A stretch of 37,205 nucleotides of DNA. Origin: Escherichia phage LMessi. How positions within the stretch are numbered: position 1 is the stretch's first letter; each line of letters opens with the position of its first letter. The notes under the pieces are model-generated. The model did not search any database. It had not been told where the DNA came from and worked only from the letters and a program-made list of their open reading frames with translations. The stretch is from sequence record PP925823.1; one strand, given 5' to 3'. Positions 19,787-32,225 of this stretch are shown one piece after another. A program made the position numbers and the translations under genes.

Positions 19787-19811
19787 ATAAAAAAAGCCAC
19801 CCGAAGGTGGC
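19787..19811 (-). terminator. hairpin + U-run element upstream of the J-like start
   Basis: Minus strand GCCACC-TTCG-GGTGGC followed by T7; shares the 22-mer AAAAAAGCCACCCGAAGGTGGC with the element at 20444-20468. Confidence 0.4.
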
Positions 19812-19830
19812 CAGAAAAAAGGTTAGTTAT

Positions 19831-20430
19831 CTACTGCTGATCTTCGACATAAATTCCGGCAGAAATAATCGCTCCGCCTATTCGCCGACGGCCATAAAGG
19901 AGCGGTACCGGGTAGCCTTGCGCCGCGGTGTTTGTTACACCACCGAATGCGTATGATGCACGGTTGTCAGCGCTTTGTTTGCTGGCCAGACCTGCAGGTT
20001 GAGGAGATAGCATTTGGACAACACCTCCCAGCATCATGGCTGCACCGAATTTCGCAGCCCCGTACCCCACCGCTGATAGAGTGCCACCTGAGAAATAGCC
20101 AATGGCTACCCCAACAACGACGAGCACGGCGCCAAGAATTGTCTGTAATACACCGGCTTTTTTACTTCCGATTACTACCGGGACAATTCGAATAACCTCA
20201 CCGGTTACCGGAAAACCAAAATCATCCTTTCCGATATTTTTTTTATCTTTAAAAACGGCGTAAGTCAGGCCCCTTGCTTTGCTGGTGATCAGGAATTTCT
20301 CCAGCCCGTTTATAGTTTTCGTAAGAGAGTTGATGGCCTCAGCGGTTGTGCGTATTAATCGATGGTGAACCTTTCCGTAGGTTTTACCCAAAACACCGCC
20401 GAGTTCAATTCGGGTCATGACCTCTGGCAT
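19831..20430 (-). CDS. tail assembly protein (lambda I-like)
   Basis: 199 aa with a C-terminal hydrophobic Gly-rich region; lies between the K-like and J-like genes. Confidence 0.7.
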   Translation of the reverse strand: MPEVMTRIELGGVLGKTYGKVHHRLIRTTAEAINSLTKTINGLEKFLITSKARGLTYAVFKDKKNIGKDDFGFPVTGEVIRIVPVVIGSKKAGVLQTILGAVLVVVGVAIGYFSGGTLSAVGYGAAKFGAAMMLGGVVQMLSPQPAGLASKQSADNRASYAFGGVTNTAAQGYPVPLLYGRRRIGGAIISAGIYVEDQQ

Positions 20431-20443
20431 TTTTATTCTCCAT

Positions 20444-20468
20444 ACAAAAAAGCCACCCGAAGGTGGCT
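20444..20468 (-). terminator. hairpin + U-run element between the lipoprotein cargo genes and the I-like gene
   Basis: Minus strand AGCCACC-TTCG-GGTGGCT followed by TTTTTTGT, then a GGAGAA RBS and the I-like ATG. Confidence 0.4.
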
Positions 20469-20486
20469 TGGATTATTTATGTTTTT

Positions 20487-29059: not shown

Positions 29060-29092
29060 ACGTTAAAAGGGCGGGTCACCCCGCCCCCTCCA

Positions 29093-30250
29093 TCATGAGC
29101 CAGAAGAGAAACTGCCCTTGATGATTGCCGTCGGGCGATAGTGCGCCAGCGCCAGGCGCTCTTCGCACAGGATGGTCAGCATGTTTTTCACGAAGTTATC
29201 GCGGTCTTCACGGCTGACTTCCACGGTGGCATCCATGCGATCCCACACCTGAGAGGCCATATCGAAACCGCCCACCGTAAAGGTACCGGCGGCCTGTGCC
29301 TTAGTCGGAACTACCGGCAGCCCCCACATGATGTTGCTGGTAAACGCCTGAGGGCCGCCGAAAATATAACGGCCTTCATTGTCTTTCAGCAGCGCAATGT
29401 TGTGCCAGTCGCGCGGGTTCAGGACGATACCGGAAGCGCTAAACTCAGATTCGGTCACCTGATAAATGGCGTGAGCGATAATGTCAGCGCGGGTGTCGCC
29501 AGTGGCATTCAGCGAGGTGTCGTAGGCGGTTGCCACTTTGTTCAGACCTTCCAGGTTATCCCCGGTACCGTCGCCGTTCAGCAGCTGGCCTTCTTCCTTC
29601 AGCGCCAGACCGTACATGAGGCGGTTGTTGACGTATGACTGCAGCATTGGCGCATCGTCCATAACCTGACGTGACGCCTGCACCCAGTGGGCGATGGTCT
29701 TCACGTTCGCGGTTTGCTTGCTGAAGGTAATATCCGATTCAGGTTTCAGCGCTTTCTCGGCCACCACATCGGCGTTATTGGTAAACACCTCTTCACGGAC
29801 GTATTCCAGGGAGTTACTGGAAATTCGGCCCTGCGCCAGCAGATCACGAATGGTCAGACGGCGCAGGCCCGGCATGATGATGCCTGGAACCTGCATCGGC
29901 TGGATCAGGCTGCCTGCAGAATCAGAATCACTGCCCAGCGACTTGTTAAAGGTTTTCGCCTCGAAGCTGCCTTTGCTGCCGTTCCAGGACTTCTGCAGTT
30001 CTTCCGCTGCGCGTTCGGAGAAGGATTTCTTCTCACCCGGATTTTCGGCACCGGAGGCCAGTTTCTGCTCAAGATCGAAGAGGCGAGTGCCGGATTTGGT
30101 CAGTTCTTCCTGTACTTTCGCAAGGTCCGACTGCAGCTGTTTGGATACCTTACCCGTGCTTTCGATTTCTGCTTTCTGTGCATCGAAAAGCTGGGACATT
30201 TTCTGCTGGGACTCTTCGATAGCTTTTTGAATGAGAGCGAGTTCAGACAT
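29093..30250 (-). CDS. major capsid protein, HK97 fold, with N-terminal delta (scaffold) domain
   Basis: 385 aa; N-terminal coiled-coil-like region (ALIQKAIEESQQKMSQLFDAQKAEIE...), follows a prohead protease, no separate scaffold gene. Confidence 0.85.
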   Translation of the reverse strand: MSELALIQKAIEESQQKMSQLFDAQKAEIESTGKVSKQLQSDLAKVQEELTKSGTRLFDLEQKLASGAENPGEKKSFSERAAEELQKSWNGSKGSFEAKTFNKSLGSDSDSAGSLIQPMQVPGIIMPGLRRLTIRDLLAQGRISSNSLEYVREEVFTNNADVVAEKALKPESDITFSKQTANVKTIAHWVQASRQVMDDAPMLQSYVNNRLMYGLALKEEGQLLNGDGTGDNLEGLNKVATAYDTSLNATGDTRADIIAHAIYQVTESEFSASGIVLNPRDWHNIALLKDNEGRYIFGGPQAFTSNIMWGLPVVPTKAQAAGTFTVGGFDMASQVWDRMDATVEVSREDRDNFVKNMLTILCEERLALAHYRPTAIIKGSFSSGS

Positions 30251-30252
30251 AA

Positions 30253-30942
30253 TTAATTACCTAAATTAGAAGGGAAAGATTTGATGCTCTGAAGCAGAGC
30301 GTTGATTTGTGCTTCGTTTCCGTCGCCCTCGGACTCGCTCCGAATCGCTGACTTAAACCGGGCTATTAGCCCAACTGCCTGTGATTTGGTGAGCCCGACT
30401 GAATCCCTCAGCCAGTTCTCCACATCACGGATCGTTTCAATGCCATCGACACTTTTCATGGCTGCAATGCCAGCCTGTTCGTTGGCCGGGAAGGTACAAA
30501 CGCTGATTTCACGCAGGGCCTGAATATTCTTAAAAATGCGGCCGGTGGTAGTGATGCTGTAATCGTCTTTCGCAACAGAAAAGCCAACCGACATCCCCTC
30601 AACGGTACCGTGCTGCATTGCCGCTTTCAGGTCGGTGGCGCCGCTGTGTCCTGGGGTCAGCTGACCGCGCACATACAGACCTTTCTCGTCTTCGGCCAGG
30701 CTGTCCCATTTACCAACCGGTAGCTCCCACGTCTTGTGGTTGAAGAACATCGCCACTTTGCGGGTCTGGTTCGCCAGTGCATTTTTAAACGCCCCTGGCA
30801 GAATGATGTCGCCATCGGAATCGGTGTTATTAAAAACAGAGGCGTAGCCTTCAAAAATCCCCTGTTTCCCGTCACCGGTGAATTTGATTTCTGTCTCGTC
30901 GAAAGACAGCGTTTTTACGATTTCAGGCATTACGGCCCCCAT
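30253..30942 (-). CDS. prohead protease (HK97-family, S78-like)
   Basis: 229-aa ORF between portal and capsid; probable true start at the second ATG (MPEIVK, about 30930), which has a G-rich RBS. Confidence 0.7.
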   Translation of the reverse strand: MGAVMPEIVKTLSFDETEIKFTGDGKQGIFEGYASVFNNTDSDGDIILPGAFKNALANQTRKVAMFFNHKTWELPVGKWDSLAEDEKGLYVRGQLTPGHSGATDLKAAMQHGTVEGMSVGFSVAKDDYSITTTGRIFKNIQALREISVCTFPANEQAGIAAMKSVDGIETIRDVENWLRDSVGLTKSQAVGLIARFKSAIRSESEGDGNEAQINALLQSIKSFPSNLGN

Positions 30943-30947
30943 AAAAA

Positions 30948-32225
30948 TTAAGCCCCGTTATTACGGGGCTCTTTGTTGGTTCCTAAGTCGGTGATCGGCA
31001 CGTATTGCGACTGGCGCATTGCCACATCGCCACCCGGCAATGGCGGGAGGTTGTCCGTTCGGCGCATTTCATTGATGGTGCGTAATCCTGCCTCTCCCAT
31101 TGCCTTCATAAAGGCTGCGCGGGATGCCGAATCGCCCCTCAGCAGGCCGTCGAGATTGTGCTCAGCATGAATACGTCCAACATCCTTAGCAGGAATAAGC
31201 CACCGCTGAATGCTGTTTTCCCACCGGGAGATATAGGGCTGCAGCGTGTACTGCAGGAAGCCGAGATTCTGCTGCTCGATACCCGATCCCCAGCTCGTTG
31301 ACTTCTCGACATCGCCGACAAGGTGAGGCGGTACGCCAAAGAATCGCGCCAGTTCACTAACCTGAAATTTTCGGGACGCCATCATTTCGGCATCCTGCGG
31401 CGTTACGCCAATTGCCGATGTGGAAAAGCCCGCTTCCAGAATCCAGAGGCGTTTTTTAACCGGACCGCCGGCGATCTCTTTGAAGTTCTCTTCGACCTGC
31501 GAGCGCTGCTGTTCAGTTAGCACTTTTTCTCCGGTTGAGAGGATTTGCGGAGACTTGGCGCCATTGGCAAAGAAATCTCGCTGCTGGTCCTCCATCGCAA
31601 CTGCCACACCTGCCGATTTACAGGCAAAAGCAATGGGGGACAGGCCGACCAGCCCGGTGAATCCGAAGCCTTTAAGGTGAAAAATCTCTCTCTGCGAAAA
31701 GTCGGCGTATTCGCTGTCGCGCTGATAGCGATAAACCACTTTTTTTCCGACGAGTTTCACATCCATATTGGCAGACTGAAGCGGGAGAAGGCTGATCACG
31801 TCACCCGCGCTGTTGCGGTCCACCAGTGCATACGCGTTACCGTAGAAACAGAGCTGCATCGTCATGGCCTCCCTGAATTCCTGGGCGGTCATGTACTGAT
31901 TCGGTGAGTAGCGCAGCAGTCGCGCCAGCGGATTGCTCAAACCCACTTTTTTGCGGTTGTCATTCTGGTCGGTTTCGAAGACATCAAGCGGTAAGCATGC
32001 CGTGAGCGTTGAAATCAGGCTCACGCAGCGCCAAACCGTCGAAATTTGCAGTATCCGTTCATCATTAATGGATGAATCGCCCAGGTGTCCGTGGGCCGAA
32101 ACAGGCCCCGTCTGTGAGCCCTGATTTGGGGTGACTAAACGCCCGCCTACAAACCAGGACTGCAGCCTTGCCCACCAGCCGTTATTGGTTCGCAGGTCAA
32201 TCGTGTATTTAGGTTCTTCCATCAC
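30948..32225 (-). CDS. portal protein
   Basis: 425 aa immediately downstream of the large terminase (start overlaps the terminase stop). Confidence 0.85.
   Translation of the reverse strand: MMEEPKYTIDLRTNNGWWARLQSWFVGGRLVTPNQGSQTGPVSAHGHLGDSSINDERILQISTVWRCVSLISTLTACLPLDVFETDQNDNRKKVGLSNPLARLLRYSPNQYMTAQEFREAMTMQLCFYGNAYALVDRNSAGDVISLLPLQSANMDVKLVGKKVVYRYQRDSEYADFSQREIFHLKGFGFTGLVGLSPIAFACKSAGVAVAMEDQQRDFFANGAKSPQILSTGEKVLTEQQRSQVEENFKEIAGGPVKKRLWILEAGFSTSAIGVTPQDAEMMASRKFQVSELARFFGVPPHLVGDVEKSTSWGSGIEQQNLGFLQYTLQPYISRWENSIQRWLIPAKDVGRIHAEHNLDGLLRGDSASRAAFMKAMGEAGLRTINEMRRTDNLPPLPGGDVAMRQSQYVPITDLGTNKEPRNNGA

Follow-up and report, generated by a model that had tools for sequence, protein, structure and literature searches.

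We sought to determine why the late operon of Escherichia phage LMessi (sequence record PP925823.1; the whole stretch of 37,205 nt that was analysed is called the window) carries, between genes that have to be transcribed together, a series of GC-rich hairpins followed by U-runs. An initial annotation had listed five such elements and two weaker ones, had likened them to intrinsic terminators inside an operon that must be read through, and had suggested that they may silence late genes in the lysogen, set protein stoichiometry or protect mRNA 3′ ends. We read the main elements, with moderate confidence, as factor-independent (intrinsic) terminators built into a single long late operon which is antiterminated by Q. 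The hairpin behind the capsid gene is probably a translational or RNA-stability element, separate from the terminators, and it is this separation, together with the comparative evidence, that adds to what was known. That the elements terminate transcription, that Q carries polymerase through them, and what they do for the phage are points which we infer.

Anatomy and enrichment of the hairpin elements

All seven hairpins were located by direct check on the minus strand (Table 1), which is the sense strand of the late operon, and each of them lies at a stop codon or no more than 24 nt from one. Their stems comprise 6–9 bp with 5–7 GC pairs and enclose 4-nt loops, and RNA folding yielded free energies (dG) of −10.7 to −17.5 kcal/mol. 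In the five main elements, at the I/J, cargo/I, T/tape measure, major tail/G and tail terminator protein (gp11)/major tail junctions, dG ranges from −10.7 to −13.1 kcal/mol and the U-tail score from −4.5 to −5.4, the stem runs straight into a tract of six or seven U residues, and the loop is UUCG in three cases out of five. The likeness to intrinsic terminators is borne out in these five by every sequence feature, and by hairpin energy and U-tail score they equal or exceed the tR′-like terminator of the same phage (−11.6 and −4.43, respectively). Their supposed position immediately before a start codon was confirmed at four sites, where the T-run ends 10–17 nt ahead of the ATG, but not at major tail/G, where the hairpin overlaps the TGA stop codon of the major tail gene and the start of G is about 33 nt further on. 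This unusually long gap contains a minimal ATG-TAA start-stop pair (27041–27046, minus strand), which may be due to chance.

The elements might be chance palindromes of GC-rich intergenic DNA that have no function, and a loose terminator scan, in which six of the seven hairpins are the top minus-strand matches, indeed revealed no overall enrichment (22 matches versus 22.8 expected, with 27 versus 17.7 in the early half). A stringent scan, which accepted only perfect stems of 5 bp or more with four or more GC pairs and a run of five or more T residues, nevertheless found five sense-strand matches in the late operon, as opposed to 0.086 ± 0.29 in 500 dinucleotide-preserving shuffles (maximum 2), whereas its antisense strand had none. 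The positions are, moreover, conserved across genera and the stems covary, as described below. The stringent scan, the covariation and the junction survey together refute an origin of the elements by chance, to which we give practically no credence. A search of the whole window against Rfam at the gathering score returned zero matches.

The need for read-through, which the initial annotation had presumed, agrees with the finding of a Q-controlled operon. Downstream of a gene for a Q-type antiterminator (PF03589) are found, in this order, a promoter-like site, a hairpin with a T-run, and the lysis genes; the gene, the promoter-like site and the tR′-like terminator would together constitute the classical lambdoid late-gene switch in its PR′/tR′ arrangement. 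Since the window has the Q gene, then the late promoter and the tR′-like terminator, the hairpin elements would sit in a Q-antiterminated operon. The tR′-like terminator is only about 30–55 nt downstream of the promoter-like site, implying a very short terminated leader RNA.

Table 1. Hairpin elements of the LMessi late operon and features associated with them (window positions)
Feature	Position	Strand	Sequence, score or match	Downstream or flanking context
Late promoter-like site	2995–2966	−	TTGACT-N18-TATGCT; sequence evidence only	
tR′-like terminator	2932–2905	−	AAACCCGC-CUCGGC-GCGGGUUU + U-run; dG −11.6, tail score −4.43	
Q-type late-gene antiterminator gene	3037–3819	−	phrog_127, E = 3e-101; Pfam PF03589 'Antitermination protein Q', 177.6 bits	
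I/J element	19787–19812	−	GGCCACC-UUCG-GGUGGCU + U7 (hairpin + T7 at 19812–19789); dG −12.2, tail score −5.24	J start region AUGGGCGCAAUAUGGC; J ATG at 19777
Cargo (moron)/I element	20444–20469	−	AAGCCACC-UUCG-GGUGGCUU (DNA 3′ arm GGTGGCTT) + T6 (hairpin + T6 at 20469–20446); dG −13.1, tail score −4.53	GGAG, then I ATG at 20430; cargo stop codon 17 nt before hairpin
Two low-GC cargo genes (moron) between K and I	20487–21176	−	GC 37.4% and 43.8% versus 53.9% in the operon	
T/tape measure element	26313–26336	−	GCCCGC-GGCU-GCGGGC + U6 (hairpin + T6 at 26336–26315); dG −11.7, tail score −5.28	AUGGGUGAAAUAUGGC; tape measure ATG at 26303
Major tail/G element	27060–27082	−	GAGCGGC-UUCG-GCCGCUU + U7; dG −11.7, tail score −4.92	
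Tail terminator protein (gp11)/major tail element	27563–27588	−	AGACCGC-CCCG-GCGGUCU + U7 (hairpin + T7 at 27588–27565); dG −10.7, tail score −5.36	CUGGAGAAACC; major tail ATG at 27551
Capsid/adaptor junction	29057–29092	−	UGGAG 29092–29088; stem GGGGCGGG 29087–29080; loop GUGA 29079–29076; stem CCCGCCCU 29075–29068	As DNA, GGGGCGGG-GTGA-CCCGCCCT + TTT, 29087–29065
Capsid/adaptor 3′ side	29067–29057	−	8-nt spacer 29067–29060, no Shine-Dalgarno sequence	gp6 ATG 29059–29057
Portal 3′ hairpin	30941–30971	−	GAGCCCCGU-AAUA-ACGGGGCUU (DNA GAGCCCCGT-AATA-ACGGGGCTT), TAA stop, U5 (hairpin, stop and T5 at 30971–30943)	Protease start region

Conserved junctions and the start region of the next gene

Conservation in related phages, on which the initial annotation had made its proposal depend, is evident from GenBank records of HK97 (AF069529), HK542 (JQ086373), mEp390 (JQ182729) and mEpX2 (JQ182726). 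The HK97 record places a 'terminator, putative' at seven junctions (the portal 3′ end, behind the capsid gene, on either side of the major tail gene, and ahead of the tape measure gene, of I and of J), which are exactly the seven of the window, and the other three records have a 'rho-independent terminator' at several of the same junctions. Annotated as terminators are the portal hairpin in all four phages, the cargo/I element in HK97 and HK542, and the I/J element, which is conserved in HK97, HK022, mEp506, HK542, mEp390 and mEpX2, in the HK97 record. Among E. coli phages hardly any variation is seen in the portal, capsid and I/J elements, whose sequences are the same or nearly identical in the four annotated genomes. 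The window differs from the HK97-type relatives in its cargo insert before I, and from HK97 itself in the gp11/major tail and tape measure stems; nothing essential distinguishes its elements from the terminators annotated in these relatives. Terminator-like hairpins in lambdoid late operons are thus already known, having been annotated since the genomes of HK97 and HK022, which were reportedly described by Juhala et al. in 2000, and the finding of the initial annotation is correct but mostly ordinary, because the records of close relatives already contain these signals.

A scan with the capsid protein, limited to one genome per species, yielded 52 further loci, mostly prophages of Enterobacterales and Pseudomonas. 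Unique junction sequences from 58 loci were then surveyed for a GC hairpin followed by at least five T residues within 7 nt. Such elements were found after gp11 (12/15), before and after the major tail gene (9/12 and 5/12), before the tape measure gene (15/32), and before and after I (10/23 and 15/26), and at none of the junctions after K (0/26), L (0/24), the large terminase gene TerL (0/43), the protease gene (0/43) or gp6 (0/36). Since the elements recur at the same junctions in relatives and are absent from coupled ones, the set of junctions that they mark is fixed, and it consists of those at which the genes do not overlap. The stems themselves may be replaced: at gp11/major tail, the window group, HK97 and HK022 have three unrelated ones, all of which lead into a T-run and GGAG, while before I four variants differ by compensatory changes, such as CCACC/GGTGG versus CCCGC/GCGGG, and the cargo upstream differs as well. 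The tape measure hairpin is present in the mEp506/HK542/mEp390 group, and HK97 has a different stem there, after the gp15 moron.

The initial annotation had also reported a 22-mer common to the I/J and cargo/I elements, and GCCACCTTCGGGTGGCTTTTTT indeed occurs exactly twice (19790–19811 and 20446–20467; zero occurrences in shuffles), forming an exact direct repeat of 22 bp that flanks the tail assembly gene I, the copies being spaced 656 nt apart. The same two-copy arrangement around gene I is seen in three IMG/VR contigs at a spacing of 655–656 nt, and more than 120 IMG/VR contigs contain the 22-mer as such, in a variety of contexts; it represents a generic hairpin, and we rejected the idea of a repeat family specific to the window. 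This distribution would suit elements that serve as recombination joints at the DNA level, where shared hairpin/T-run microhomologies permit exchange of modules and morons and persist as a by-product of mosaic evolution, the more so as mosaic breakpoints coincide with hairpins, with different sequences upstream (a moron versus none) and the hairpin and tail in common. However, the base changes are compensatory and keep the pairing, and the strict sense-strand orientation and the requirement for a U-tract indicate selection on RNA rather than just on DNA identity, which makes recombination joints a very improbable explanation.

The hairpin at 20444–20469 ends an insert of two cargo genes, which match phrog_2320 and phrog_914, both families of unknown function, and have lipoprotein-like N-termini (…VGC and …MGC). 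Different genes, or none, are found between K and I in relatives, in which other morons are also seen inserted immediately ahead of these hairpins, and the two genes are probably lysogenic-conversion or exclusion cargo. Morons are inserted genes with a promoter and a terminator of their own, a concept derived from the comparison of HK97 with HK022 (PMC3594210). The cargo genes resemble them in their foreign GC content, their absence from relatives and their ending at a strong terminator hairpin. In contrast to typical morons, no promoter was found for them by a simple sigma-70 consensus scan, although they may have a weak or non-consensus one, and, unlike terminators confined to morons, the same hairpins also occupy junctions without a moron, such as I/J in the window.

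When 101 unique non-portal elements were aligned at the end of the T-run, the consensus that followed was A (75%), T (75%), G (50%), N3, GGAG, an A-rich stretch and ATG, and in 77 of the 83 elements whose Shine-Dalgarno sequence and start codon could be recognised, the start codon is located 15–23 nt after the stem. The conserved tail, which had been taken for a signature of the terminator family, consists of the signals that initiate translation of the next gene, namely its Shine-Dalgarno sequence and ATG. The tail motif described as common to the J and tape measure copies does exist, since TTTTTATGGG-N6-8-ATGGC has exactly two occurrences, one ahead of J and the other ahead of the tape measure gene (zero in shuffles), and the two tails are alike because both use UGGG(C/U)G...AUAUGGC. 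A hairpin of phage lambda after lom (19612–19655), AGCCCGCCG-GAAC-CGGTGGGCT followed by TTTTTGTGGGGTGAATATGGCA, has a tail nearly identical to that of the tape measure element in the window.

Directly after the T-run, 'ATG' appears in 46 of the 101 unique elements, which are not independent of each other, as compared with 3.8% of control T-runs; examples in the window are found at 19786–19788, 26312–26314 and 20440–20442. It does not represent an alternative in-frame start, being in frame in only 5 of 41 cases and having a different offset in HK97 and in the window. Neither does it fit a coupled promoter of the kind in which a −10 element stands right after the terminator T-tract (bioRxiv 10.64898/2026.08.19.745784): the hexamers TATGGG, TATGCC and TATGAC lack the invariant final T, and the promoter scan of the late region, given below, found no promoters at all.

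The capsid and portal hairpins

The assumption that all the elements are of one kind did not survive comparison at the junction between the genes for the major capsid protein and the head-tail adaptor, where 44 unique relatives have a GNRA-loop hairpin that is usually devoid of a U-tract. This hairpin is found in 51 of 54 unique junctions; in the window its dG is −17.5 kcal/mol (−25 with flanks, z = −4.0), and its short U-tract (UUUU) has a tail score of −3.64. The 8-bp stem has 98.6% of its cells paired in the 44 relatives, compared with 39–52% in slid controls, and several positions swap GC, CG and AU, amounting to full compensatory changes; pairs were counted on ungapped sequences of fixed length, as the MAFFT alignment was one column out of register between groups. 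The loop conforms to GNRA in 36 of the 44. Thus, the hairpin behind the capsid gene behaves as a distinct, strongly covarying RNA structure.

Its surroundings set it further apart. A purine tract (GGAG, GAGG or AGGG) abuts the 5′ base of the stem in 42 of 44 sequences, versus 3 of 101 and 0 of 36 in the other two classes of element, and the adaptor ATG is placed 7–9 nt (mostly 8) past the 3′ base, with no Shine-Dalgarno sequence within the spacer. In T4 genes 38 and 25, the ribosome-binding site is split, and a hairpin brings the Shine-Dalgarno sequence and AUG together (PMC3014915). The capsid/adaptor junction, alone among those considered, has the same layout of a Shine-Dalgarno-like purine tract directly 5′ of a stable hairpin and an AUG 8 nt 3′ of it with no Shine-Dalgarno sequence between; it differs from the T4 cases in that the hairpin follows a stop codon, has a short U-run in the E. 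coli/Enterobacter group, and may have a purine tract that simply extends the helix. The last point arises because, in minimum free energy (MFE) folds, some of the tract is often paired with the U-rich 3′ flank; only 4 of 22 folds leave it free. If the tract is indeed a helix extension, translation of the adaptor would need rare re-initiation after translation of the capsid gene, which we mention as a lead and not as a result. Taken together, these features suggest that the capsid hairpin, instead of being a terminator, may serve as a split ribosome-binding site or for re-initiation.

Could all the elements, then, be translational leaders, with the U-run acting as an enhancer that binds S1 and the hairpin insulating the start region from upstream ribosomes and structure, and with a split ribosome-binding site, or only rare re-initiation, at capsid/adaptor? 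The tight spacing between stem and ATG and the consensus of T-run, AT, N4, GGAG, A-rich stretch and ATG would be accounted for, as would the placement of elements directly before the most abundantly needed proteins (protease/capsid and major tail), and the purine tract and spacer of the capsid/adaptor junction have the documented precedent in T4. On the other hand, the same leader is found on low-copy genes (tape measure, I and J), the purine tract is seldom free in the MFE folds, as noted, the support is sequence-based, and it would be left unexplained why the same cassettes end cargo genes. We therefore regard a purely translational role of the elements as improbable.

The portal hairpin forms within the last 24 nt of the portal coding sequence (dG −15.7 kcal/mol, z = −3.7), and its U-tract is interrupted by the stop codon (UUAAUUUUU; tail score −2.69), which in relatives, too, always stands between the stem and the U-run. 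Among 39 distinct relatives 96.3% of cells are paired, versus 33–57% in slid controls, four pairs have changed on both sides, and all 500 shuffles fall short on each of the five measures. The pairing is kept even though the last seven codons differ and the C-terminal peptide varies accordingly (EPRNNGA, NPAPSGV, KSLNEGT and RPLTGGA). Both the portal and the capsid hairpins are specific to the HK97-type head module, a difference from the late operons of lambda, P22 and phage L.

These two hairpins surpass the rest of the set in stability and in the strength of their covariation, which would suit elements that served as mRNA punctuation. An endonuclease, for example RNase E, would cut the AU-rich stretch behind a hairpin, which would shield the upstream segment from 3′ exonucleases, and a hairpin at the new 5′ end could protect the downstream segment, so that blocks such as protease-capsid and major tail would accumulate differently. 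In agreement with this proposal, the hairpins delimit blocks of overlapping, translationally coupled genes, flank the major tail gene on either side and also come after the capsid gene, and they are kept without a U-tract in the capsid junctions counted above and at major tail/G in HK97 and HK022; besides, Q should make termination irrelevant in lytic growth. It is opposed by the strong conservation of the U-tract at five junction types and its absence at control junctions, as a pure stabiliser needs none, and by the fact that no processing sites are known and that the same elements end cargo genes expressed without Q. Punctuation as the main purpose of the elements appears unlikely, if less so than a translational one.

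Role in the late operon and genome setting

The logic of Q-mediated read-through is textbook knowledge, and it readily accommodates the preferred reading of the main elements as terminators. Polymerase unmodified by Q, whether coming from stray promoters, from host read-through or from a moron promoter in the lysogen, would stop at the nearest hairpin and U-tract, which would keep the virion genes silent and give the cargo transcripts a defined end; that cargo genes of foreign GC content end at one of the hairpins lends support to such a role. After induction, Q would load onto polymerase at the late promoter beside its own gene (about 2966–2995), and the modified enzyme would ignore the tR′-like terminator and all those downstream, so that the whole operon would be transcribed. 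The hairpins would remain in the long mRNA, each of them 15–23 nt before the next Shine-Dalgarno sequence and ATG, and because of this position they probably also mark the borders of translationally coupled blocks. They may also act as barriers to 3′ exonucleases; roles in the stability of mRNA segments and in initiation of translation are compatible with the data and not mutually exclusive with termination.

Precedents for both parts of this scheme are available. Once loaded with Q, polymerase disregards terminators for thousands of base pairs (PMC9388147), and terminators within late operons are common in lambdoid phages, where they have been proposed to stop transcription lacking antitermination (PMC8022706). 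The latter study offers partial termination or the halting of non-antiterminated transcription, the same two ideas as the initial annotation, and phage L has such a terminator behind its procapsid module, for which the same two roles are proposed (PMC8022706). Like lambda, P22 and phage L, LMessi combines a single late promoter and a Q-type antiterminator (Q/gp23) with terminator-like hairpins inside the operon, which in lambda are located at D/E, E/FI, I/J, J/lom and lom/stf; unlike these phages, the HK97-like ones have more of them.

Several observations weigh against the terminator reading. The roles of intra-operon terminators 'are not known' (PMC8022706), and in the literature on HK97-like late operons and on this phage we found no 3′-end, Term-seq or transcriptome study. 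A simple sigma-70 consensus scan of positions 16000–35999 on both strands gave zero promoter-like sites, as opposed to 12.2 ± 3.3 in shuffles, and hence no source of the unmodified transcription that the terminators would block. A hairpin before the tape measure gene is missing from HK022 and mEpX2, no T-run follows the major tail/G hairpins of HK97 and HK022, and the U-tract of the capsid/adaptor hairpin is usually absent outside the E. coli/Enterobacter group. Finally, the tight, conserved spacing to the next Shine-Dalgarno sequence and ATG, and likewise the excess of 'ATG' after T-runs (46% versus 3.8% in controls), point to constraints beyond transcription termination.

As regards the late region, it appears to have been purged of promoter-like hexamer pairs; the early half is likewise depleted of sigma-70 promoter-like sites (8 versus 16.9).

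Of the functions suggested in the initial annotation, setting of protein stoichiometry by partial termination fits poorly. The two best-conserved elements are directly upstream of protease/capsid and of the major tail gene, and we disfavour it because these are the proteins needed in the largest amounts; elements placed in front of the most abundant proteins of the virion speak against simple attenuation.

The evidence on translation and on RNA stability can also be combined with termination in a composite proposal, which we hold to be possible, if rather doubtful. The seven elements would then not form one terminator family: the capsid/adaptor hairpin would be a deeply conserved translational device of HK97-type head modules, the elements with hairpin and U-run would be composite cassettes of terminator and ribosome-binding site with a mainly post-transcriptional function in lytic growth, and the portal hairpin, with the stop codon as a spacer ahead of its U-run, could even be a 'Q-dependent' terminator, such hypothetical nonstandard terminators having been discussed for Q-loaded polymerase (PMC9388147). 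The capsid device could be a split ribosome-binding site, or a hairpin-bridged termination/re-initiation site setting a low ratio of adaptor to capsid, and the lytic job of the cassettes would be the stability of mRNA segments and translational insulation. Whichever function prevails, the question of role is sharpened by the comparative data, which reveal fixed junctions across prophages of Enterobacterales and Pseudomonas and a fixed distance to the next ribosome-binding site, and HK97 is a well-developed model phage in which to pursue it.

The window belongs to an HK97-like lambdoid phage. An 11.5-kb region of it can be aligned over more than 90% of its length, at 93% identity, with Escherichia phages mEp506, ECP1, HK542 and mEp390, and HK97 matches the same region with 89% identity over 55%; the capsid protein is 100% identical to its counterpart in a contig of Enterobacter sichuanensis. 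Protein family searches revealed a minus-strand order of small and large terminase, portal, prohead protease, major capsid protein, head-tail adaptor, further connector proteins, tail terminator protein, major tail protein, G/T chaperones, tape measure, M, L, K, the two cargo genes, I and J. This order is that of the vegetative map of lambdoid phages: one end of the window holds the lysis genes, the other the genes that lie upstream of terminase, and the late transcript would therefore have to leave the low end of the window and resume from the high end. Such a course, for which we rely on colinearity with an Enterobacter prophage, is not proven. In keeping with the same colinearity, the window has the appearance of a complete, circularly permuted phage genome (about 37 kb) and not of an integrated prophage; a BLAST comparison of the window ends (1–800 and 36000–37205) with the Enterobacter prophage yielded the colinear order and no alignment spanning the junction. 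The integrase gene is internal (11483–12730, plus strand). Just upstream of the terminase genes there is an HNH endonuclease gene (within 34624–36991, minus strand), and the two genes before it, encoding 485 and 196 amino acids, match PHROG families labelled as glycosyltransferases, the Pfam match being sub-threshold only.

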